Both the position numbers and the translations under genes were made by a program. A model generated the notes under the pieces. The model saw nothing but the letters and a program-made list of their open reading frames with translations, ran no database searches and was not told where the DNA came from. A stretch of 64,000 nt of DNA from Candidatus Dadabacteria bacterium (lineage in GTDB: Bacteria; Desulfobacterota_D; UBA1144; Nemesobacterales; Nemesobacteraceae): assembly GCA_009837205.1 (NCBI GenBank), contig VXTZ01000022.1, positions 70,560 to 134,559 on the forward strand, read 5' to 3'. This document shows positions 5,021 through 15,932 of this stretch, in pieces (the first letter of the stretch is position 1; each line of letters opens with the position of its first letter).

Positions 5021-6508
5021 ATGGTTTCTCCCTCCTATGAACAGTTCCTAGAGAACCTCGAACACGGGAATCTCGTACCCGTATGGGAGGAAGTTCTGGC
5101 CGATTACGACACTCCGGTTTCGGTTTTCAGGAAGATAGACTCGCCCGGTTACTCCTTTCTATTCGAAAGCGTGGAGGGCGGAGACAAGTGGGCGCGCTAC
5201 AGCTTTCTGGGCACGGAACCCTCGGTGGTATTCCGCTCGAAGGGCCAAAGCATCGAGATAATGTACTCGGACGGGGAAACCGAAACGTTCACGGGCGACC
5301 CGATTCTGGCGTTGCGGGACCTGCTTTCACGATACAGGCCGGTTTCTTCGGAGGAACTTCCGAGATTTCACGGTGGGGCAGTCGGTTACTTCGGTTACGA
5401 CATAATCAGATTTATAGAGGATATTCCCGATACCTCTCCTGATGAGCTCAAGGTCTGGGACTCCGTTTACATGGTAATGGATACCGTTTTGGCATTTGAT
5501 AACGTTACGAGCAAGATAAAGATCATCTCAAATGCCTATGTTCCCGACATTAAAAATGCGAGGGAGGAGTACGAAAAATCCCTTACGAAAATAGCCGAGC
5601 TTAAAAGCAGGCTTAGAAATTCGCTTAGCGAAAGGTTTACCAACGGTATTCCTCAAGATGTTGGCGAGGAAAAATTCAAGATCGAATCCAATTTCGAACC
5701 CGCACACTTCAAAGATGCGGTTCTCAGAACCAAGGAGTACATAAAATCAGGGGACATAATACAGGCAGTGATCTCCCAGAGATGGAAGACGGACCTGAGG
5801 GTCGATCCTTTCGATCTCTACAGGGCGCTCAGGATACTAAACCCTTCTCCGTACATGTTTTTTCTGAGGATGGGTGACGAGATACTCACAGGATCTTCTC
5901 CGGAGGTGATGGTAAGGGTCGAGGGGGAAAGAATCGCAAGCCGTCCGATAGCCGGGACGCGGCCGAGAGGAAAAACCGTCTCCGAGGACGAAAGCCTCGC
6001 GGCCGAACTCATTGCGGACCCCAAGGAGAGGGCCGAGCACATAATGCTCGTTGATCTCGCGAGAAACGATCTGGGAAGAGTTTCCAACACGGGCTCGGTC
6101 AAAGTGGACGATTTCATGATCGTGGAGAGATATTCCCACGTGATGCATATAGTTTCGAACGTGACGGCTCTGATTGCCGAGGGAGTGGATGCCTTTGACG
6201 TCATAAAGGCGACTTTTCCCGCGGGCACTCTTTCCGGAGCGCCGAAGGTAAGGGCAATGGAGATAATCGAGGAAACCGAGCCGACGACGAGAGGAGCATA
6301 CGGGGGATGCGTCTGCTACTTCAGTTTTTCGGGCAACATGGACAGTTGCATAACCATAAGAACGTTCGTGATAAAAGACGGCAAAATCTACATACAGGCG
6401 GGGGCTGGCATAGTGGCAGATTCGGATCCTGAAACCGAGTACCAGGAAACGGTTAACAAGGTAAAGGCCTTGGTGAATTCGGTTGAGCTTGCGGAGGAGG
6501 GACTCTGA
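5021..6508 (+). CDS. trpE: Anthranilate synthase component I; the track ORF begins at a TTG at 4985 and the ATG at 5021 is the alternative start
   Basis: Chorismate-binding-enzyme motifs (LVDLARNDLGRV, GTLSGAPKVRAMEII); about 500 aa. Confidence 0.9.
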   Translation: MVSPSYEQFLENLEHGNLVPVWEEVLADYDTPVSVFRKIDSPGYSFLFESVEGGDKWARYSFLGTEPSVVFRSKGQSIEIMYSDGETETFTGDPILALRDLLSRYRPVSSEELPRFHGGAVGYFGYDIIRFIEDIPDTSPDELKVWDSVYMVMDTVLAFDNVTSKIKIISNAYVPDIKNAREEYEKSLTKIAELKSRLRNSLSERFTNGIPQDVGEEKFKIESNFEPAHFKDAVLRTKEYIKSGDIIQAVISQRWKTDLRVDPFDLYRALRILNPSPYMFFLRMGDEILTGSSPEVMVRVEGERIASRPIAGTRPRGKTVSEDESLAAELIADPKERAEHIMLVDLARNDLGRVSNTGSVKVDDFMIVERYSHVMHIVSNVTALIAEGVDAFDVIKATFPAGTLSGAPKVRAMEIIEETEPTTRGAYGGCVCYFSFSGNMDSCITIRTFVIKDGKIYIQAGAGIVADSDPETEYQETVNKVKALVNSVELAEEGL

Positions 6509-7098
6509 TGACCGGGAACAAAAGGAAAGTGATTCTGATGATTGATAATTACGATTCCTTTACCTACAACTTGGTCCACTATCTGGGGGAACTCGGTCAG
6601 CAGATCGAGGTGAGGAGAAACGACAGTCTTGATTTGGGTTTCGTGGATGATCTTGACCCCGACATAATCGTAATCTCTCCCGGGCCCTGCACTCCCAAAG
6701 AGGCCGGGCTTTCGGTCGACATAATAAAAAGGTATGTCGGGGAAAAACCCATTCTCGGCGTCTGCCTGGGTCACCAGGCGGTGGGCTATGCATACGGGGC
6801 GAACATAATCCGGGCAGAGAGGCTTCTGCACGGAAAAACTTCCCCGATCCTTCACGACGGAAAAACCATCTATAAGGATCTTCCAAATCCCTTTGAAGCT
6901 ACGAGATACCATTCACTTCTGGTGGAAGAGGCATCCCTTCCGTCCGACTTCGAAATTTCCGCTTGGACCAAGGAGGGTGAAATCATGGGGATAAGGCACA
7001 GAGAACTTCCTGTTGAGGGCGTTCAGTTCCACCCCGAGTCCATCCTTACGGAGTGCGGGAAGGATCTTCTAAGAAACTTTATCGATTGCTATGGGTAA
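6508..7098 (+). CDS. trpG: Anthranilate synthase component II (class I glutamine amidotransferase)
   Basis: GVCLGHQ catalytic Cys motif and HPES; start overlaps the trpE stop (TGATG). Confidence 0.9.
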   Translation: MTGNKRKVILMIDNYDSFTYNLVHYLGELGQQIEVRRNDSLDLGFVDDLDPDIIVISPGPCTPKEAGLSVDIIKRYVGEKPILGVCLGHQAVGYAYGANIIRAERLLHGKTSPILHDGKTIYKDLPNPFEATRYHSLLVEEASLPSDFEISAWTKEGEIMGIRHRELPVEGVQFHPESILTECGKDLLRNFIDCYG

Positions 7099-7366: not shown

Positions 7367-9142
7367 ATGGGCCTTCTGGTTGAAGCTTTCATTTTTCTGC
7401 TGGCGACGATTGTTGTTGTTCCTGTCTGCCGTAAGTTCGGATTGAGCAGCGTGCTTGGCTACCTGCTTGTTGGATTGCTGATCGGTCCAGGCGTGTTCGG
7501 GCTTGTGGGCAATGCAACGGAAGTTCTGCACTTCGCTGAGTTTGGAATCGTTCTGTTGATGTTTCTCATCGGTCTCGAACTTCGTCCGCATCGTCTCTGG
7601 ACCATGCGGAGATTTCTCTTCGGGCTGGGTACAACCCAGATCCTTATCACCTCAGTCGTCATTGCGGTGTTCTGTTTCATGTTGCTGGGGATGGGGACGC
7701 CTGCGTCAATACTGATCGGGTTCTCTCTTGCTCTTTCAAGTACGGCATTTGTCGTGCAGTGGCTCGGGGAGCACAGGGAATTCAACAGGCCCCATGGACG
7801 TGCGGCTTTCGGCACGCTGCTTATGCAGGATGTCGCCGTTATCCCTGCAATAGCCTTAATAGGCATCTTGTCTTCTAAGCCCGGGGATTCGGCGTCGTTG
7901 AACTTGCTGCTTCTTATCGCTGTTGTGGCTGGATTCGTGGTTGCTCGGTTTACGCTTCGCCCCGCCCTGCGTTTTGTTGCCTCCACGGGAATCCATGAAC
8001 TTTTCACGGCCGCCGCGCTTACGCTTGTGACAGGCGCCGCCTTGGCGATGCATAGCATCGGTTTTTCAATGGGGCTCGGGGCTTTCGTGGCGGGCGTTAT
8101 GGTTGCCGATTCTGAGTATCGCCACCAGCTTGAAGCGGACGTAATGCCCTTTAAGGGGCTGCTTGTGGGTCTTTTCTTCATTGCGGTCGGCATGTCGGCC
8201 AACCTGGGTTTGTTGATCAGCAAGCCGCTTTTGATCGTCGGACTGACTGCGGTTCTCATGGTCGTAAAGTCGCTCGTTATATACCCGCTTGCCAGATTGC
8301 AGGGTCTTAGGCACGATGAAGCGGTAAGGACAGGACTTGTGCTTTCCCAGGGCGGGGAGTTTGCCTTTATTCTGTTTACAATAGGCGTTTCGGCGCAGCT
8401 TGTAGATCAATTCGTGGTCGATATTGCCGTTTTGGTGGTAACGTTGTCAATGGCGGCAACACCTTTTCTCGTTGCGCTCGGTTCCCGGTTCGGTGCCGAA
8501 AAGGACAGTGCACCCGCTCCTTTAGAGGAAACCCATGGATCGCAAAATTCCGTTATCATCGTAGGGTTTGGTCCGTTCGGCCAGACCGTAGCTCGGATAC
8601 TGACCATACTTGAAATTCCATTCACGGTGATTGAACTCGATCCCAAGAGGGTTGACTTCGTTCGTCAGTTTGCAAGCGAAACATACTATGGCAACGCGTC
8701 GAGCCTGCGGGTTCTGCTATCTGCTCATATTGACCGAGCTCCTGCGATCGTCGTGGCGATCGACGATGTCGAATCGTCTCTGAAAATAGTCAGTCAGGTA
8801 TCTAATTCCTTTCCGAACCTTAAAATTATGGCGCGCGCTAGGAATCGTTTTCACGAAATAAAGCTCCGCGAGCTTGGAGTGACCTCCGTGATTCGCGAGA
8901 CTCTGCTTTCAAGCCTTGCTCTTTCAACCCAACTGCTTGAGCATCTGGGGTTACCCCAGTCCGATGCGGCGGAGATAATCCAAGCTTTTCGGGAACACGA
9001 TGCCCAAGCTCTGGATAATCAGATGGCGGTTTACCACGATAAAACCGGGTTTCCTGAAGATGTGTTTGATACGACGCAGGAACTAAAGGAATTGTTCAAG
9101 GAAGATAAAAAAACCAGTCTGCGCGTCGAAAAGAAAACTTGA
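7367..9142 (+). CDS. KefB/KefC-family (CPA2) K+/H+ antiporter with a C-terminal RCK/TrkA-N domain
   Basis: N-terminal Na+/H+ exchanger helices and a GFGPFGQ Rossmann motif of the RCK domain; about 45 percent similar to E. coli KefC by eye; codon usage (CTG-rich Leu) differs from its neighbours. Confidence 0.85.
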   Translation: MGLLVEAFIFLLATIVVVPVCRKFGLSSVLGYLLVGLLIGPGVFGLVGNATEVLHFAEFGIVLLMFLIGLELRPHRLWTMRRFLFGLGTTQILITSVVIAVFCFMLLGMGTPASILIGFSLALSSTAFVVQWLGEHREFNRPHGRAAFGTLLMQDVAVIPAIALIGILSSKPGDSASLNLLLLIAVVAGFVVARFTLRPALRFVASTGIHELFTAAALTLVTGAALAMHSIGFSMGLGAFVAGVMVADSEYRHQLEADVMPFKGLLVGLFFIAVGMSANLGLLISKPLLIVGLTAVLMVVKSLVIYPLARLQGLRHDEAVRTGLVLSQGGEFAFILFTIGVSAQLVDQFVVDIAVLVVTLSMAATPFLVALGSRFGAEKDSAPAPLEETHGSQNSVIIVGFGPFGQTVARILTILEIPFTVIELDPKRVDFVRQFASETYYGNASSLRVLLSAHIDRAPAIVVAIDDVESSLKIVSQVSNSFPNLKIMARARNRFHEIKLRELGVTSVIRETLLSSLALSTQLLEHLGLPQSDAAEIIQAFREHDAQALDNQMAVYHDKTGFPEDVFDTTQELKELFKEDKKTSLRVEKKT

Positions 9143-9185
9143 TTAGTTTTTTACAAACTTGGGTGTTAGGCACCTACCAGAGTTT

Positions 9186-9545
9186 GCATATGTTGCTTCA
9201 GTTTTTCGGGCAACATGGACAGCTGCATAATCATAAGAGCGTTAGTTATAAAAGACGGTAAAATCTACATATAGGCAGGAGCCGGTATAGTGGCAGATTC
9301 GAATCCAGAAACCGAGTACCAAGAAACGGTTAACAAGGTAAAGGCCTTGGTGAAGTTGGTTGAACTTGCGGAGAACGGACTCTGATGACCGGGAGCAAAA
9401 AAGGGGATAATTTTGAGTTCTTGGATGATCTTGCCTCTGACATAATCGTGATCCCCCCTCCCCGGCCCTTGCATCCTCAAAGAAGCTGGCTTTCGGTCGA
9501 CATAATAAAAAGGTACGTCGGGGAAAAACCCATTCTCGGTGTTAA
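9186..9545 (+). pseudogene. Degenerate duplicate of the trpE 3' end plus the trpG 5' end (trpE'-trpG' fragments)
   Basis: 9190-9385 is about 88 percent identical to 6310-6505 and contains an in-frame TAG; the following trpG' part (MTGSKKGDNF...SVDIIKRYVGEKPILGV) lacks about 40 codons relative to the intact trpG and is then fused to unrelated sequence. Confidence 0.85.
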
Positions 9546-9741
9546 TCTATACTTTCATCACATAGTTTTTGAGAATAGCCAGGATGCAAGTTTCCAAGGT
9601 GTTGTGGGCAAACATCCTGTTACGAGCGCTAAGGGCACAATAGAGTTCGTGACCTCACCGGAAGTGACAATTCTTGAGTTTTCAGCCCGGTCTTGTATCC
9701 TAATCGCTTCAACTTCTTGTATATATTTGAGGAAGATATCA

Positions 9742-10386
9742 ATGGCTTCTAAGTTGCCCTATATGGTGTCAGTAGGATTGATTCCGAAGATACTAGAAAA
9801 AGTTCAAAATGCAAAGCGCCCTGAAAGGTTTACTCAAGATTTTCTGGAGACGAAACTCGGACACAGTGGGGGTAGTGCACGACCTATTATTCCGTTACTA
9901 AAACGTATGGGGCTTCTCGGTGCAGACGGAGTTCCAACGGTTCTATACGACCAATTTCGTAATCCTGAGACCCAAGGCTTCGCCGTTGCCAAAGGGATAA
10001 AGAATGCATTTACCGAACTTTTTGACCGGAATGAATATGTCTACGAATTGTCTCGTGAAAAGTTGACAGGACAGGTAATCGAGATCACAGGTGGAACAAA
10101 GGAAGACAGTCGCACCAGAGCCATTGTTGGCACCTTTTTGGCGCTGAAAGAGTTAGCGGACTTCGAGGCGGAGGATCCCCAAAATCTAGTCTCTGAACAA
10201 AAATCGGAAGCAACTTCTTTGGCACAGCCTTCGAGTGACGCTGAAAATGTATCTCCGATTACCGATAAAGACAACATTGAGTTGAGAGTAGGATACACAA
10301 TCAATCTCAACCTCCCAGAGACCAAAGATCCCGAGGTCTTCAATGCTATTTTCAGAGCTCTTAGGGAGAATCTATTGAAAAACTGA
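9742..10386 (+). CDS. Hypothetical protein, 214 aa, first gene of a coupled two-gene module
   Basis: Good RBS (GAGGAAG, 7 nt, ATG); the track merges it with the trpG' fragment as a 333-aa ORF; it has an acidic Ser/Glu-rich linker and a conserved-looking C-terminal segment; no family recognised. Confidence 0.55.
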   Translation: MASKLPYMVSVGLIPKILEKVQNAKRPERFTQDFLETKLGHSGGSARPIIPLLKRMGLLGADGVPTVLYDQFRNPETQGFAVAKGIKNAFTELFDRNEYVYELSREKLTGQVIEITGGTKEDSRTRAIVGTFLALKELADFEAEDPQNLVSEQKSEATSLAQPSSDAENVSPITDKDNIELRVGYTINLNLPETKDPEVFNAIFRALRENLLKN

Positions 10387-10967
10387 TGCGCGCAGAAGAA
10401 GCAATCAAATTATTTGGGTTAAACAACCTAACTATCGAGTCGGATATTCGACAGATAGAAAGGGAGTATGATATTGATCTTGGCCACAAGAAAGACCAAG
10501 AACAAAGCATAGATCAGACTTATTACCCTCAGTTCACTGAACGGCTTCGAACCGAGGCATCTCGTATGTCAACGAATTATGCAATCTTTTACTGTCTTGA
10601 GAATAGTATACGAGAAGTGATTGTCCAGCGTCTTGAGGAAGAGCACGGTACCAACTGGTGGAGTACTGCTGTACCGGAAATCGTTCGTAAGAACGCTGAG
10701 CGAAACCGAAAGAAAGAACTATCATCGGGAGTCACCCCCCGATCAGTAGAGCTAATAGATTTCACAACCTTTGGGGAGCTAGGCGAAATCATTAAGGCTA
10801 ATTGGGATATCTTCGGTGATATGTTTTGCGATGTTCAGGCAGTCGAAAGGGTCCTAGCGACGCTTAATACATTGCGTGCGCCGATAGCACACTGCAAAGC
10901 ACTCGCGGAGGACGAAGAATTGCGACTACATCTAAGTCTACGCGACTGGTTCCGGCAGATGGAATAA
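10386..10967 (+). CDS. HEPN-like alpha-helical protein (Rx4H motif), second gene of the module
   Basis: The start ATG overlaps the upstream stop (TGATG). The protein is 193 aa, predicted all-helical, with a C-terminal LRAPIAHCKAL motif that fits the Rx4-6H HEPN catalytic signature, resembling Swt1/Abi-type HEPN domains. Confidence 0.55.
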   Translation: MRAEEAIKLFGLNNLTIESDIRQIEREYDIDLGHKKDQEQSIDQTYYPQFTERLRTEASRMSTNYAIFYCLENSIREVIVQRLEEEHGTNWWSTAVPEIVRKNAERNRKKELSSGVTPRSVELIDFTTFGELGEIIKANWDIFGDMFCDVQAVERVLATLNTLRAPIAHCKALAEDEELRLHLSLRDWFRQME

Positions 10968-11381
10968 TATATTGGACATCCGGTTCTATACATTCCCAGC
11001 ACGCAAACTCCAGCGAATTTTATTCTCTAGGCTATTGCCGCATTTGAGTACCATACAGATGAGATAGATACAGCCCACCTGAAAGAAGATTTGTTGAGTA
11101 ATCAGGTTTCTGGTTCCGGAGATTTTCTCTAGAGTAGTCATTTACGGAGAAGCGATCCATCAATCCCGTAGCACGGGTGAATTTGTTTCGTCTTTATAGG
11201 TTATGTGACGTGCTTGAACTCTTCGAAGCAAAGATAAATCGGCGAGAACTGAGCAGATAAACACTCTGCCTAAGCCATTTGCTTTTTTCAGGTAGACTAG
11301 GGCGGTCAGAATAAGCAAGAGCTTGAAACCGTCAAAGGCGGTGATTTATATTCTGAGACTAAAATACGCAAGAGGAGAAAA

Positions 11382-13100
11382 ATGAAACTGCCTTTACGTC
11401 CGAGAGACGAAAAATACATAGGGAAAGGGACTCTTCCAAACGGCCCCTTAGACGATACCGACAAGTGGCTTCCGATAACCAGATACCTTGAAGCTGGGGC
11501 TGAGTCATACCCAGAAAAAACGATGTTCAGCCTCGGGGATTCAGACGGCAACGTGGCTGAAAGCTACAGTTACGGGGAAACCAACGCCTGGGCGAACAGG
11601 GTGGCAAACGGTCTTGTCGGGGAGTTCGGAATAAAAAAAGGGGACAAGGTCGGTATGTACATGCTCAACTGTTCAGAGTACGTCATATCGATTATCGCCG
11701 CGCACAAATCAGGCGCCGTTCAGGTCCCGATAAACAAGGATGAAAAAGGCGACAGGCTGGCTTACGTAATAAACTACTCCGAGATGCGGGTGCTCGTGGT
11801 CGACACCCAGAGCCTTCCCTACATAACTGAAATAGCGGACAAGCTCGAGAATCTCGAGGCGGTTTTTCTTGTCTCGGAGGATGCTCCGGCGGATATAGGG
11901 GGCATAAGAGCGCTTCCTTTTTCCACTTTTGATCAATACTCATCCGAAAACCCGGGAGTCGACGTGACGATTGCCGACAAGGAAAGGTGCATGTTCACTT
12001 CCGGCACCACGGGTATGCCCAAAGGTGTTATCCGCGATCACGGAGGGGTGATCATGACTGTACGCTCCTTCATACAGCAGCAAGGGCTAAGAAGCGAGGA
12101 CGTCTTGATGACGGTTCTTTCCCTAGGACACGCAAACGCCCAGGTGATGTGCCTTTTTGTCTCAATAGCCGTTGGAGGTTCAGCCGTTTTCTTCCCGAGG
12201 TTCTCCGCCTCCAATTTCTGGAAGTGGGCGGCGGGCTGCGGTGCGACCGGGGCGAACATGCTGGGAGCGGTGCCAGAATACATATGGGCTTCTCCGCTGT
12301 CAGAGTGGGATTCAAAGCATGGGATAAGGATGATGCTCTCGGGGCCCGCGCCTAAAAAGCTTCGCGAGTTCGAGGAAAGATTCAACACGAAGATAGTTGA
12401 AGGCTACGGATCTACTGAGATGGGGATGCCGCTCTGGAAGGACCCCGAGGATGAAAACCCGGGTTCATGCGGATTTCCCGTCGAGGGGTACCACCTTGAG
12501 ATAAGAGATCCCCTGAACACAGACGAGATCATAGACAAACTATGGGACGTGGACAAGAATCCCGCTCCCGCCGAGGAGGAAAAAGGACTTCTTTTCATAA
12601 AGCCCCTAGTTCCGCACACTACCCTCGATGAATATTTCAAGGACGAGAGAAGAACGAAAAACGCTTTTGACGACCAGGGATTTTTCAATTCGGATGACCT
12701 GTTTGCCGCGGGAACCGACGGGAGATACTACTTCATGGGCCGCTACAGCAGGATACGCGTGTCGGGAGAGAACGTTGATCCTGTAGCGGTAGCCGATGTC
12801 TCCGAGGAACATCCTTCAGTTCGGGAGGGGGTGGCCGTAGGCATTAGACTGCCCGACATATCGGATGACGAAATCAAACTCAACCTGATACTTAAGGAAG
12901 GGGCGAATTTCGATCCTGTGGAATTCTGCGAGTGGATGGCCGAGAAGGTGATGGTGGCCATGGTTCCAAGGTTCATTGAAGTCTACGAGGAGTTTCCGCT
13001 TACCTCAACCCAGAAAATCGCGGTTTCGGAACTAAAGGGCATATCCGGTTCCACATGGGACAGGCACGAAAGCGGACTCAAGCTAAGGTCAAGGAAGTGA
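11382..13100 (+). CDS. AMP-dependent synthetase/ligase (acyl-CoA synthetase family)
   Basis: FTSGTTGMPKGV adenylate-forming motif, GYGSTE, and a C-terminal Lys region; 572 aa. Confidence 0.85.
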   Translation: MKLPLRPRDEKYIGKGTLPNGPLDDTDKWLPITRYLEAGAESYPEKTMFSLGDSDGNVAESYSYGETNAWANRVANGLVGEFGIKKGDKVGMYMLNCSEYVISIIAAHKSGAVQVPINKDEKGDRLAYVINYSEMRVLVVDTQSLPYITEIADKLENLEAVFLVSEDAPADIGGIRALPFSTFDQYSSENPGVDVTIADKERCMFTSGTTGMPKGVIRDHGGVIMTVRSFIQQQGLRSEDVLMTVLSLGHANAQVMCLFVSIAVGGSAVFFPRFSASNFWKWAAGCGATGANMLGAVPEYIWASPLSEWDSKHGIRMMLSGPAPKKLREFEERFNTKIVEGYGSTEMGMPLWKDPEDENPGSCGFPVEGYHLEIRDPLNTDEIIDKLWDVDKNPAPAEEEKGLLFIKPLVPHTTLDEYFKDERRTKNAFDDQGFFNSDDLFAAGTDGRYYFMGRYSRIRVSGENVDPVAVADVSEEHPSVREGVAVGIRLPDISDDEIKLNLILKEGANFDPVEFCEWMAEKVMVAMVPRFIEVYEEFPLTSTQKIAVSELKGISGSTWDRHESGLKLRSRK

Positions 13101-14051
13101 GCTTGAGATAAAGTAGAGAAACGCTACGTAAATTATAAGCAGAAGAACCCCTTTCTTTTTTCCGACCCTGTTTTTACCAATCTGGGTTTTCCCGATTAGT
13201 AACACGAAAAGAACTGTAAGCAGGATAAGAAATGCGAATTCGGACGCGTATCCGAACATATCCCGGTTTACCTCTATGGGTCGGATAACCGCGACGAGAC
13301 CCAGATACCCGAGATTAAAGAAATTGCTCCCTATTATGTTGCCAACGACTATGTTCTGCTCTTTTCTCCACGCGGCCACGAGCGAAGCGGCAAGTTCCGG
13401 AAGTGAAGTTCCGAAGGCAACTGCCACGACCCCTATGAAAAGTTCGCTTATTCCGAGCTGTTCGGCGATATCTATTGCGCTGCTAACCAAAAGATGGGCG
13501 CTGACAGCCAGAAGCACTGAACCCGAGACTACGTAAAGAAGGATCTTCCACCCGCCGTCATCTGGCGATACGGAAAAAGCCTCGTTTTCTTCTGTGGATT
13601 TTCCGTAGGGGATGACCAAAAGGACGCCGAGCAGGAGAAACAGCAGCACTCCTTCACCTCTTTCGAGAGAGAATTCCGTGAGGCTGAGGCCGAAAGCGGC
13701 AAAAGTCATAAGCCCCATAAAAACAAGCGGAAGCCACTGCTCTTTCCACGCTTCTCTGCTTATCACTATTGGACTTATAAGAACCGTCAGGCCAAAAATA
13801 AGCCCGGTGTTGGCGATATTGCTTCCGACCATGTTTCCGACTGCTATGTCGCTTGAGCCCTCTATGACCGCCACCAAGGAAACCATGAATTCGGGAACGG
13901 ATGTTCCAAACGCAACCACGATAAGTCCCGCAAAAAAGGTGCCCATGCCGGTGAACGCAGCAACCCCGGAGGCGCCTCTAACGAGAAGACGGGCTCCCTT
14001 CCACAGAAGAGCGAAACTCACGGCAAAAATCAGCAGATTCAAAATTCCCAT
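13089..14051 (-). CDS. CaCA-family Na+/Ca2+ exchanger (YrbG-like)
   Basis: Two alpha-repeat motifs, GTSVPE and GTSLPE, in a 10-TM protein; its 3' end overlaps the acyl-CoA synthetase stop by 12 nt. Confidence 0.85.
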   Translation of the reverse strand: MGILNLLIFAVSFALLWKGARLLVRGASGVAAFTGMGTFFAGLIVVAFGTSVPEFMVSLVAVIEGSSDIAVGNMVGSNIANTGLIFGLTVLISPIVISREAWKEQWLPLVFMGLMTFAAFGLSLTEFSLERGEGVLLFLLLGVLLVIPYGKSTEENEAFSVSPDDGGWKILLYVVSGSVLLAVSAHLLVSSAIDIAEQLGISELFIGVVAVAFGTSLPELAASLVAAWRKEQNIVVGNIIGSNFFNLGYLGLVAVIRPIEVNRDMFGYASEFAFLILLTVLFVLLIGKTQIGKNRVGKKKGVLLLIIYVAFLYFISSSLP

Positions 14052-14210: not shown

Positions 14211-15932
14211 ATGCAATTATTATTCAAACCGCGCGATGGCGTATATCTGGGAAGCGGAGATCTTCCCTTCGGTAAATTTGAAGACACTTCACTTTGGCAG
14301 CCGATAACCACAAATCTTGAGAAGGGTGCCGAGATGTTTCCCGACAAGGCAATGTTCAAGGTCGGAGACAGAGACGGAAACATCGTGGAGAGCTACACTT
14401 ATGCGGAAACCAACGCGTGGGCCAACAGGGTGGCAAACGGTCTTGCCCAAGGGTTCGGAATAAATAAAGGGGACAAGGTCGGCATGTACATGCTCAATTG
14501 TTCTGAGCACGTGATATCTATTATCGCCATACACAAGTGCGGCGGCGTGCAGGTTCCGGTAAACAAGGACGAGAAGGGGGAAAGACTCGCTTACGTAATC
14601 AACTACTCGGACATGAGAGCCCTCATTATTGACGAGGGGAGCATTCCTTTCATAGAGGAAATCGGCGACAGTCTGGAGCATCTTGAAGCAGTTTTCGTGA
14701 CGGTTGACAATCCACCTGAAAAAATCGGAGGCATAAAGACGCTTCCTTTCTCAGAATTTGACAGTTATGACGATACTAATCCCGGGGTGGACGTTACCAC
14801 TGCAGACATGGAGAGATGTATGTTTACGTCCGGTACCACGGGGATGCCAAAAGGGGTTGCCAGAGACCACGGAGGAGTGATCATGACGGTCCGTTCTTAT
14901 CTGCAGCAGCAGGGAATAAGGAACGACGACGTGCTCATGAGCATACTTTCACTCGGTCACGCCAACGCGCAGGTAATGTGCCTTTTCAGCGCCATGGCGT
15001 CCGGTGGGACTGCCGTGTTTTTCCCCAGATTCTCGGCTTCCAATTTCTGGAAATGGGCGGCCGGGTGCGGCGCGACATGCGTTAACATGCTGGGAGCGGT
15101 AGCCGAGTACCTCTGGGCCGCGCCTGAGAGCGAGTGGGATCAGAAGCACAACATAAGGATAATGCTGGGCTCCCCGGCTCCGAGGAACTTGAAGGAATTC
15201 CAGGAGAGGTTCGGAGTCAGGGTAATAGACGGATACGGTTCGACCGAGATGGGCATGGTTCTCTGGAAAGACCCCGAGGATCACCGCCCGGGTTCATCCG
15301 GTTTCCCCATGGAGGGATATTACGTCGAGCTCAGAAATCCCGAAGACATCGATACGGTGGTAAGACCGTTCTGGGATTCTACCGACGACATTACTCCTCC
15401 CGACGATGCCAAGGGGCTTCTTTTCGTAAAGCCGCTTGTTCCGCATACGACCCTGAATGAATATTTCAAGGATGAGAGAAGAACCAGAGAGGCTTTTGAC
15501 GATGACGGCTTCTTCAATTCGGACGATCTCTTCGCCAGAGGTATCGATGGGAGATACTATTTTGTCGGAAGGTTCAGCCGCATCAGGGTTTCAGGCGAAA
15601 ACGTGGATCCGGTAGCCGTCGGGGACGAGGCGATGCAATATCCCGCGATTCAGGAAGCCATTGCGGTCGGTATAAGGCTCCCGAACGTTTCGGATGACGA
15701 GATCAAGCTCTGCGTTACGCTCAAGGTGGGCGAAGAATTCGATCCGATTGAGTTTTCCAAATGGATGGCCGAAAGGGTTATAGTGGCCATGGTGCCCAGG
15801 TTCATAGAGGTTTACGAGGATGGATTCCCGGTAACCGCGACCCAGAAGGTCAAGGTCGCCGAAATAAAGGAAATCACCGAGAATACCTGGGACAGAAACG
15901 AGACGGGCCTCAAGTTCAGCGCCAGAAAGTAG
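14211..15932 (+). CDS. AMP-dependent synthetase/ligase, close paralog of the 11382 gene
   Basis: About 75-80 percent amino-acid identity with the 11382-13100 product over the full length and the same motifs. Confidence 0.85.
   Translation: MQLLFKPRDGVYLGSGDLPFGKFEDTSLWQPITTNLEKGAEMFPDKAMFKVGDRDGNIVESYTYAETNAWANRVANGLAQGFGINKGDKVGMYMLNCSEHVISIIAIHKCGGVQVPVNKDEKGERLAYVINYSDMRALIIDEGSIPFIEEIGDSLEHLEAVFVTVDNPPEKIGGIKTLPFSEFDSYDDTNPGVDVTTADMERCMFTSGTTGMPKGVARDHGGVIMTVRSYLQQQGIRNDDVLMSILSLGHANAQVMCLFSAMASGGTAVFFPRFSASNFWKWAAGCGATCVNMLGAVAEYLWAAPESEWDQKHNIRIMLGSPAPRNLKEFQERFGVRVIDGYGSTEMGMVLWKDPEDHRPGSSGFPMEGYYVELRNPEDIDTVVRPFWDSTDDITPPDDAKGLLFVKPLVPHTTLNEYFKDERRTREAFDDDGFFNSDDLFARGIDGRYYFVGRFSRIRVSGENVDPVAVGDEAMQYPAIQEAIAVGIRLPNVSDDEIKLCVTLKVGEEFDPIEFSKWMAERVIVAMVPRFIEVYEDGFPVTATQKVKVAEIKEITENTWDRNETGLKFSARK

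Follow-up and report, generated by a model that had tools for sequence, protein, structure and literature searches.

Gene Organization of the Locus

The locus considered here lies in a metagenome-assembled genome (MAG) of Candidatus Dadabacteria, within a window of 64,000 nucleotides (the whole stretch of DNA that was analysed). It comprises two adjacent genes, ORF1 and ORF2, and the following features (positions are those of the window):

9185–9542, + strand: decayed copy of the 3' end of trpE and the 5' end of trpG (context, outside the module)
9659–9741, + strand: upstream leader of the cassette, conserved with the nearest copies (L001, L002)
9730–9735, + strand: Shine–Dalgarno-like AGGAAG, 6 nt 5' of the ORF1 start
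9742–10386, + strand: ORF1, DUF5343 protein (PDC-M34A), HEPN partner; 214 aa, ATG start
9742–10176, + strand: ORF1 N-terminal domain, aa 1–145; winged-helix-like module, then a helical bundle
10177–10290, + strand: ORF1 linker, aa 146–183; Ser/Glu/Pro-rich, hypervariable in sequence and length (alignment), predicted to be disordered
10291–10383, + strand: ORF1 C-terminal tail, aa 184–214 (31 aa); GYTINLNLPETxDPEVFNAIFxALRxNLL
10384–10388, + strand: TGATG stop/start overlap of ORF1 and ORF2, seen in the sequence and read as translational coupling
10386–10967, + strand: ORF2, Swt1-family HEPN protein (PDC-M34B), predicted RNase effector/toxin; 193 aa, ATG start
10590–10616, + strand: HEPN helix-1 motif of ORF2, Y69-C-L-E-N-S-I-R-E77 (alignment)
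10875–10892, + strand: Rx4H motif of ORF2, R164-A-P-I-A-H169 (predicted catalytic), invariant in alignments
10968–11071, + strand: downstream conserved stretch, which ends sharply at CAGATGAGATAGATAC

The stop codon of ORF1 (TGA, 10384–10386) and the start codon of ORF2 (ATG, 10386–10388) have one base in common (1-nt overlap). The coupling of the two genes through TGATG, claimed in the original prediction, is confirmed by the sequence, and in 154 of 155 loci the DUF5343 and HEPN genes either overlap or are separated by 0–12 nt. ORF1 also possesses, as claimed, a putative ribosome-binding site of its own (the AGGAAG listed above). ORF2 has no Shine–Dalgarno-like site of its own upon sequence inspection, the nearest one being AGGGAG, 18 nt upstream. 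Homologues of ORF1 begin at the same Met in the alignment. The deposited annotation of ORF1 is 333 aa long and represents a chimera with the trpG remnant.

Reading of the leader (9659–9741) by eye gives a possible promoter (TTGAGT ... TATCCT) and TCTTG(T/A)(A/G)T repeats at 9672, 9691 and 9715. No such promoter or repeat motif is common to the more distant loci.

ORF2, a Predicted HEPN Ribonuclease

In a profile search of both proteins against Pfam, residues 68–192 of ORF2 match HEPN_Swt1 (PF18731; 50.7 bits vs. a gathering score of 27.5), and ORF1 matches DUF5343 (PF17278; E 6e-46). The terminal region of ORF2 reads ...LNTLRAPIAHCKAL... and contains the Rx4H motif, R164 being encoded by 10875–10877 and H169 by 10890–10892. 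Both residues are invariant in 35 close ORF2 sequences and in 30 diverse pairs; Y69, C70, L71, E72, N73, R76 and E77 of the helix-1 motif are invariant as well (n = 35 sequences). Judged by its sequence, ORF2 can be placed in the Swt1/Abi2 clade of HEPN proteins, its Rx4H being conserved, as was originally predicted.

PF18731 also includes the HEPN domain of eukaryotic Swt1 (PIN + HEPN). In Swt1, this domain is fused to PIN and considered catalytically inactive (PMC3710099), whereas ORF2 is a stand-alone protein, and its Rx4H is intact. In the structural comparison, PbAbiF in complex with its ncRNA (PDB 8vz6) ranks first for ORF2. A PDB sequence search with the ORF1 and ORF2 profiles gave nothing meaningful.

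ORF1, a DUF5343 Partner Protein

DUF5343 is the sole Pfam match of ORF1: no nucleotidyltransferase family is found at E up to 1, and the GS...DxD nucleotidyltransferase motif is not found in it. The earlier statement that ORF1 is not an MNT nucleotidyltransferase is therefore correct. The HEPN-MNT system (HepT-MntA, type VII TA) is also a widespread and mobile two-gene operon with a small HEPN RNase effector carrying Rx4-6H. However, its partner is a minimal nucleotidyltransferase (GSx10DxD), whereas ORF1 is a DUF5343 protein, and its HEPN belongs to the MNT-associated clade, in contrast to the Swt1/Abi2 clade of ORF2. Since ORF1 is not a minimal nucleotidyltransferase, AMPylation-type neutralisation cannot apply.

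The layout that had been described for ORF1 (a conserved N-domain, a Ser/Glu-rich linker and a short C-terminal part) is recovered at aa 1–145, 146–183 and 184–214. The predicted fold is winged-helix/helical; for the N-domain, the structure model gives a confident winged-helix-like prediction, and the recognition helix predicted in ORF1 does not vary between phyla. In the predicted structure, pLDDT is <50 across residues 149–183. The C-terminal tail is the most conserved stretch of ORF1 in the alignment, with Y185, T186, I187, L189, L191, P192, V199, F200, I203 and F204 being invariant (30 pairs, 47–80% identity), and a helix is predicted in it at residues 197–211. It is proposed that this tail is a HEPN-binding, neutralising element. 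Such a build, in which a disordered linker joins the winged-helix-like N-domain to a conserved tail, would be, as modelled, the classic antitoxin layout.

A weak structural resemblance of the ORF1 N-domain to BrxA (DUF1819; BREX DNA-binding protein) was obtained with weak scores. It was not recovered by Foldseek, BrxA has no sequence similarity to ORF1, and the linker and tail of ORF1 are lacking in BrxA; the modelled likeness may serve as a lead and does not indicate membership. Among proteins in which DUF5343 is fused to another effector, a kinase fusion (P0305) and a coiled-coil/TM fusion (P0323) were encountered. When the P0305 N-domain served as the seed of a search, just ordinary proteins came back, mostly of ~200–230 aa. 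Both fusions are singletons and possibly gene-call artefacts.

Flanking DNA and Edges of the Cassette

The segment 9185–9542 is a direct copy of 6308–6761 with 80–89% identity and a ~96-nt deletion. In a syntenic sister Dadabacteria genome (L088), an intact 196-aa GATase gene occupies the scar position, and the same cassette lies at the same place. The claim of a foreign insertion marked by pseudogene scars can be retained in part: the scar is real and transfer across phyla is evident (see below), but the scar is a decayed remnant of a second trpG paralogue, and the cassette is an old resident of this Dadabacteria lineage, because the sister genome has both an intact trpG paralogue and the cassette at the same place.

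DNA homology to the nearest copies is confined to 9659–11071 and starts at 9659 in L001 and at 9736, just before ORF1, in L002. The transferred unit has its right edge at the end of the stretch 10968–11071. The ~410 bp of AT-rich non-coding DNA noted 3' of the pair correspond to a 414-bp spacer (10968–11381), the GC content of which is ~0.42–0.45 vs. 0.50–0.56 in the flanks. The fold of the stretch 10968–11071 does not stand out from that of shuffled sequence (z 0.42), and this value lends no support to a terminator-like or integron attC-like structure 3' of the pair. An Rfam scan of 9000–11500 (both strands, E up to 1) gave no match, a tRNA scan gave nothing, and no enriched k-mer indicative of a shared upstream operator or downstream element was found among 75 loci.

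These data bear on an AbiF-like type III arrangement, in which the HEPN would be restrained by an ncRNA, not by ORF1. It could be suggested by the PbAbiF–ncRNA complex as the top structural match of ORF2 and by the short conserved non-coding stretches that flank the cassette in its closest copies. However, these flanks are conserved just in L001, L002 and the sister genome, the downstream stretch shows no preferred fold, and the empty Rfam scan includes the AbiF ncRNA (RF03085). A protein partner is present in essentially every locus, and ORF2 differs from AbiF/AbiD (Abi_2) in being shorter and in having such a dedicated partner. An ncRNA-restrained HEPN is thus very improbable here.

Pairing, Distribution and Spread

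In 75 of 76 DUF5343-anchored loci, the HEPN gene follows directly 3' of the DUF5343 gene and on its strand, and DUF5343 is found upstream of HEPN in all 79 HEPN-anchored loci with room for it. The pairing is far from chance, because it recurs in about 160 independent loci, and the two proteins are obligate partners. The architecture of toxin–antitoxin (TA) or abortive-infection loci, which had been ascribed to the pair, is borne out by this co-occurrence of two coupled genes. Co-occurrence is essentially constant across genomes, and the neighbours are not conserved: all-against-all clustering of 540 neighbour ORFs revealed no conserved third gene.

With 2,058 clusters at 50% identity for the DUF5343 partner alone, this is a large family, and 304 loci occur among 185,579 species-representative genomes. 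Homologues are present in Pseudomonas and Citrobacter, too (L039, L060, L062, L038). Its distribution is patchy and extends over >10 phyla, and the genomic position of the module is not conserved across taxa. Copies from Dadabacteria, Alphaproteobacteria and Thermodesulfobacteriota share 70–96% amino-acid identity, and the nucleotide identity of the window cassette to copies in other phyla is ~80%; from these values, cross-phylum transfer of a 1.4-kb unit is evident. Such transfer, together with frequent loss or pseudogenisation and the variable genomic position, speaks against a housekeeping regulatory or RNA-processing pair, in which the HEPN fold would be catalytically irrelevant (as in MtlR) and no conflict role would exist. 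The invariance of Rx4H and of the helix-1 polar residues, unlike inactive HEPN domains, does not agree with it either, and this explanation deserves next to no credence.

Most sampled flanking genes are of housekeeping type. One copy is located in an island rich in TA systems and mobile elements (VapBC, ParDE, Fic, integrase and relaxase fragments), some copies are on prophage-like contigs, and the L087 copy adjoins HsdM of a type I restriction-modification (RM) system. Some copies are thus found in defence or mobile contexts, but the enrichment of the sampled loci in defence islands is weak (~8–10 defence proteins out of 148 sampled neighbours). No copy of the pair is carried by 72,556 plasmids, of which just 3 encode Swt1 HEPN proteins, all of them distant; cultured phages and E. 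coli likewise lack the pair in the collections searched, and there is no PHROG family for it. Neither a mobility gene nor conserved ends could be detected for the cassette.

A pure addiction/stabilisation module, or a selfish cassette without an anti-phage role, could be maintained by post-segregational killing and horizontal transfer. Patchy cross-phylum distribution with very high sequence conservation would be expected of it, and the copy in the VapBC- and ParDE-containing island and the predominance of housekeeping over defence neighbours are in agreement. Nevertheless, the pair is missing from plasmids, the usual home of addiction modules, and the lack of mobility genes and defined ends does not favour self-maintenance by transfer. 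Many TA modules prove to be anti-phage, so this explanation, unlikely as it is when taken alone, is not exclusive of the TA-like or abortive-infection module preferred below.

Loci with Disrupted ORF1

A stop codon, a frameshift or an IS element disrupts the ORF1 N-domain or linker in 9 loci, all with an intact HEPN. The tail ORF is kept beside the intact HEPN in all of them (9/9); in L178, ORF1 is reduced to a 43-aa tail ORF. ORF1 pseudogenes beside an intact HEPN argue against full-length ORF1 as an essential antitoxin.

Such alleles would be tolerable if the HEPN needed activation. In a sensor–effector type of abortive infection, different from TA, the HEPN would be off by default, and the winged-helix/BrxA-like domain of ORF1 would sense phage nucleic acid or protein and activate or recruit the HEPN via the tail. 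An invariant predicted recognition helix without conserved upstream DNA fits a classical operator-specific autorepressor poorly and suggests a ligand other than the own promoter of the module. The weak likeness to BrxA, the HsdM neighbour in L087 and the embedding of the family in RM/BREX-type systems are also compatible with sensing. On the other hand, hallmarks of type II antitoxins are seen in the gene order (antitoxin, then toxin), in the stop/start overlap and in the combination of a disordered linker with a C-terminal tail, and the sampled loci are weakly enriched in defence islands. The loci with broken ORF1 are few and partly derived from MAGs, and in them ORF2 could be silenced by lost translational coupling. 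Activation by ORF1 is consequently a possible but rather doubtful alternative to neutralisation by ORF1.

Relation to Known and Predicted Systems

ORF1 matches PADLOC PDC-M34A over residues 1–211 of 214 (E 3e-52), and ORF2 matches PDC-M34B over residues 5–192 of 193 (E 5e-41). PDC-M34 is one of 145 phage-defence candidates predicted by "guilt-by-embedding"; its source cassette is CAS_00130 (FAM_01148>>FAM_01657), it has 97 RefSeq occurrences, and members of the family were seen embedded within systems of the RM/BREX type (Payne et al. 2024, bioRxiv 10.1101/2024.01.29.577857). The pair described here has the same A-then-B order of adjacent genes on one strand, with near-full-length matches of both proteins. 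There is no structural difference, the window providing a new copy from Candidatus Dadabacteria, although most copies sampled in this work lie outside RM and BREX systems. The pair therefore is a further copy of the catalogued candidate PDC-M34, not a new kind of system. The original prediction of a previously undescribed system cannot be upheld, both proteins belonging to Pfam families and the pair matching a PADLOC candidate over its full length. A literature search for PDC-M34, DUF5343, PF17278, PF18731 and HEPN_Swt1 revealed nothing beyond a HEPN survey of 2013 and the PADLOC preprint of 2024.

RnlA-RnlB and LsoA-LsoB also combine a HEPN-domain RNase toxin with a protein partner gene. In these systems, a small labile antitoxin binds the toxin directly, and activation occurs on phage infection. 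RnlA, in contrast to ORF2, is large and multidomain, the gene order is toxin followed by antitoxin, and neither ORF1 nor ORF2 has any sequence relationship to these proteins.

Proposed Function and Significance

The locus is probably a self-contained, horizontally mobile two-gene conflict module of the PDC-M34 family, acting as a type II TA-like or abortive-infection system. By analogy with other HEPN toxins, the predicted HEPN endoribonuclease ORF2 would dimerize, and two Rx4H motifs would form a metal-independent RNA-cleaving site. ORF1 would be its dedicated controller, composed of a winged-helix-type N-domain capable of nucleic-acid binding, a disordered variable linker and a conserved strand-plus-helix tail, which would dock on the HEPN and hold ORF2 inactive. 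Both genes could be read from a single transcript, with ORF2 being translated by termination/re-initiation at TGATG; since translation of ORF2 would depend on this re-initiation, the effector would always be accompanied by its partner. Loss, degradation, titration or diversion of ORF1 (e.g., by phage infection or loss of the element) could free the HEPN, and cleavage of cellular and/or phage RNA could then stop growth. The analysis establishes the family membership, the conservation of the catalytic residues, the obligate pairing and coupling of the genes, the mobility and the domain layout of ORF1; we infer the RNase activity, the toxicity, the neutralisation by the tail, the trigger and the anti-phage effect.

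CRISPR (Cas13, Csm6), TA and abortive-infection systems all make use of HEPN RNases as effectors, and every family known so far has its own mode of restraint. As a tentative extension of the TA-like or abortive-infection reading, the module may represent a distinct, very widespread type, in which the ~35-residue tail is the minimal HEPN-neutralising element, and the invariant winged-helix/BrxA-like N-domain, not being an autorepressor, would sense an invader-derived protein or nucleic acid and thereby release the RNase. If true, HEPN toxins would here be controlled by a new logic, unlike AMPylation (MNT), ncRNA (AbiF) or RnlB-type binding. For the window itself, the value lies mainly in correct annotation. 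For the DUF5343–HEPN family, which is unusually conserved across phyla, control of an RNase by DUF5343, once established, would provide a function for this domain and would allow the PADLOC candidate to be validated or dismissed.

Gene structure and family assignment

The pair comprises two genes of the window:

9742-10386, + strand, ORF1, DUF5343 partner gene, 214 aa
10386-10967, + strand, ORF2, HEPN gene, 193 aa

Read from the sequence, both ORFs and their TGATG overlap, in which one base is common to the ORF1 stop and the ORF2 start, are exactly as originally predicted. The ribosome-binding site proposed for ORF1 was also found, as a Shine-Dalgarno-like AGGAAG 6 nt upstream of the start. 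ORF2 has no such site at the normal distance, and therefore its translation is probably coupled to that of ORF1. The deposited gene (protein P0122, annotated 'DUF5343 domain-containing') is a longer ORF of 333 aa (9385-10386). It is chimeric, a remnant of a second trpG copy being by chance in frame with ORF1. In the alignment, nearly all ORF1 homologues begin at the Met at 9742; judged by this agreement, that Met is the true start, and the 214-aa call of the original prediction is right.

ORF1 belongs to Pfam DUF5343 (PF17278; E 6e-46, residues 6-145). ORF2 matches HEPN_Swt1 (PF18731; E 2.7e-13) at 50.7 bits, above the gathering score of 27.5 bits, and its C-terminal end, LNTLRAPIAHCKAL, carries R164 and H169 of the Rx4H motif; both features support its earlier identification as a HEPN protein. 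The suggestion that the system is undescribed does not hold, since both proteins match PADLOC-DB models, namely PDC-M34A (ORF1, E 3e-52, residues 1-211) and PDC-M34B (ORF2, E 5e-41, residues 5-192). PDC-M34, listed as cassette CAS_00130 (FAM_01148>>FAM_01657) with 97 RefSeq occurrences, belongs to a set of 145 "phage defence candidates" derived from genes that lie within systems of four kinds (BREX, DISARM, type I RM and Hma); the authors themselves describe these candidates as untested (Payne et al. 2024, bioRxiv 10.1101/2024.01.29.577857). The 2013 HEPN survey covers the Abi2/Swt1 clade and does not describe a DUF5343 partner, and no mention of PDC-M34, DUF5343, PF17278 or PF18731 was found in the literature searched. 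The DUF5343-HEPN pair is therefore catalogued yet uncharacterised, and the window pair is a further member of this candidate family, not a new kind of system.

The N-terminal domain of ORF1 (residues 1-145) is predicted by AF2 mostly with confidence (per-block mean pLDDT 74-95, mostly >88) as a helical bundle preceded by a helix-turn-helix that carries a short wing. The model shows disorder at residues 149-183 and places a C-terminal helix at 197-211. The tail, GYTINLNLPETxDPEVFNAIFxALRxNLL, is the best-conserved region, even where overall identity of the pair is 47-58%. In ORF2, modelled by AF2 as entirely helical with only moderate confidence (pLDDT 72), the alignment reveals invariant Y69-C-L-E-N..R76-E77 and L163-R164..H169; an N-terminal extension of about 50 residues is likewise conserved.

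In two rare proteins the DUF5343 N-domain precedes a different C-terminal part: P0305 (457 aa) has a Ser/Thr protein kinase domain there, and P0323 (371 aa) a coiled coil with two predicted transmembrane helices. A search seeded with the P0305 N-domain returned relatives of ordinary length only, so these fusions may be singletons or gene-call artefacts.

Genomic context in Dadabacteria

Proteins identical to the window pair come from Candidatus Dadabacteria MAGs. In the window the neighbours are housekeeping genes:

5' side, in order: phosphoglucomutase, TrpE, TrpG, KefB-like antiporter, scar (9185-9542), then ORF1-ORF2
3' side, in order: AMP-binding enzyme, Na/Ca exchanger (opposite strand), second AMP-binding enzyme, YidC

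The scar, originally regarded as a pseudogene trace of a foreign insertion, is a direct copy of 6308-6761 (trpE 3' end and trpG 5' end; 80-89% identity). Gene order is shared with the sister Dadabacteria genome L088, in which an intact second TrpG paralogue (196 aa GATase, 90% identical to TrpG1) occupies the scar position and is followed by the same cassette. In both genomes the KefB-like gene lies between two copies of the trpE 3' end plus trpG (window, 6308-6761 and 9185-9542; L088, 3062-3852 and 5940-6815); the second copy in the window is decayed and lacks about 400 nt. Flanking proteins of the two genomes are mostly 93-97% identical, ORF2 93.8% and ORF1 83.8%, the ORF1 differences lying mostly within the linker. 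Read from this synteny and the intact paralogue, the scar is a decaying trpG paralogue and not an insertion footprint, and the cassette has long been present in this lineage and was inherited vertically.

The part of the insertion claim that stands concerns transfer across phyla. DNA of the nearest copies from other phyla (L001, Thermodesulfobacteriota, and L002) is about 80% identical to the window only within 9659-11071, an extent of homology that delimits the transferred unit at about 1.4 kb. GC content at 9000-11400 is lower (0.41-0.47 vs 0.50-0.56).

L001 and L002 are MAGs labelled as different phyla (Thermodesulfobacteriota, Spirochaetia), with flanking genes (PheS and others) as well as the cassette in common, a pattern pointing to an error of binning or labelling in one of the two. 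Downstream of the pair in the window, the AMP-binding genes (11382-13100 and 14211-15932; 572 and 573 aa) are acyl-CoA-synthetase-like paralogues. The exchanger between them (13089-14051) shares 12 nt with the end of the first and is only 75% identical to its L088 counterpart vs 94-97% for the surrounding genes.

Distribution and neighbourhoods

A word-indexed search gave 3,884 relatives of ORF2 and 1,084 of ORF1, and an exhaustive profile search gave 2,058 DUF5343 clusters at 50% identity. Scanning one genome per species yielded 304 loci, distributed among Alphaproteobacteria, Gammaproteobacteria, Actinomycetota, Planctomycetota, Acidobacteriota, Chloroflexota, Bacteroidota, Nitrospirota, Saccharibacteria, Peribacteria and others. 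The pair was not found in 72,556 plasmids, 50,697 phage records or 5,426 E. coli genomes.

Conservation of the pairing, when checked elsewhere, was confirmed from both sides. The HEPN gene lies directly 3' on the same strand in 75 of the 80 kept DUF5343 loci; four exceptions are at a contig edge, and L049 has an ISL3 transposase instead. In the HEPN-anchored set (5 viral and 80 metagenome loci), DUF5343 is upstream in all loci with room (79/79). The genes overlap in 87 of 155 loci and are separated by 0-12 nt in 67. No recurrent third gene was found near the pair. The ISL3-family transposase gene of L049 (6048-6848) occupies the expected HEPN site, 3' of an intact DUF5343 gene and adjoining a DNA methylase.

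Neighbourhood gene calls were crude, so the following statements are qualitative. Of 148 ORFs lying no more than two genes from the pair (42 loci), most are housekeeping (ribosomal L2/S19, PheS, SecDF, MFS, MgtE), about 8-10 are defence proteins (type IIG RM, methyltransferases, DRT, CBASS cyclase, IetA), and a few are resolvases, integrases and PIN proteins. Settings are wholly housekeeping in Aurantimonas and Labrenzia. The pair adjoins HsdM in L087, and in L083 it is on a prophage-like contig near tail genes. In L174 (1-16582 of a 5.3-Mb genome) it lies in a dense island rich in TA and mobile elements, with PIN/RHH (VapBC-like), ParDE, Fic, PDDEXK, a reverse transcriptase, TrwC relaxase fragments, an integrase and a Mu Gp27-like gene.

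Natural disruptions and proposed function

ORF1 is broken in about nine loci in which HEPN is full-length with intact Rx4H:

L005: start codon lost and TAA at codon 111
L007: TAG near codon 77
L008: TGA near codon 26
L113: 5' truncation
L150, L152, L171: frameshifts
L178/L179: 5' end cut off by an IS element

In L178/L179 a 43-aa tail ORF alone is left, with its own ATG and abutting the HEPN start; the last ~40 ORF1 codons are open in every disrupted-ORF1 locus, the tail motif having served as the search pattern in the genome scan. In L049 and L123 only HEPN is broken; in L011 both genes are. Given small counts (~10:3, p about 0.07), possible MAG errors and this search pattern, the disruptions are suggestive, not significant. 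Three readings are possible: neutralisation could reside in the tail, a tail ORF could need to be translated only to couple ORF2 translation, or ORF1 nonsense mutations could silence ORF2.

The main rival to an antitoxin role is that ORF1 could act as a sensor or activator. It is favoured by tolerated loss of the N-domain and by a predicted recognition helix that is invariant across phyla, whereas the upstream DNA is not conserved. The best-supported interpretation is a type II TA-like or abortive-infection module, in agreement with the original prediction and supported by family matches, coupling, pairing and the ORF1 layout. ORF2 would be the HEPN RNase effector, and ORF1 a partner with a classical antitoxin layout (DNA-binding-type domain, flexible linker, short conserved binding segment); co-translation would ensure that no effector is made alone. 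RNase activity, toxicity, neutralisation, a trigger and any anti-phage effect are putative attributes of the pair. DUF5343-HEPN pairs form a large and unusually conserved family that is unexplored and may follow a control logic unlike that of the known HEPN systems.
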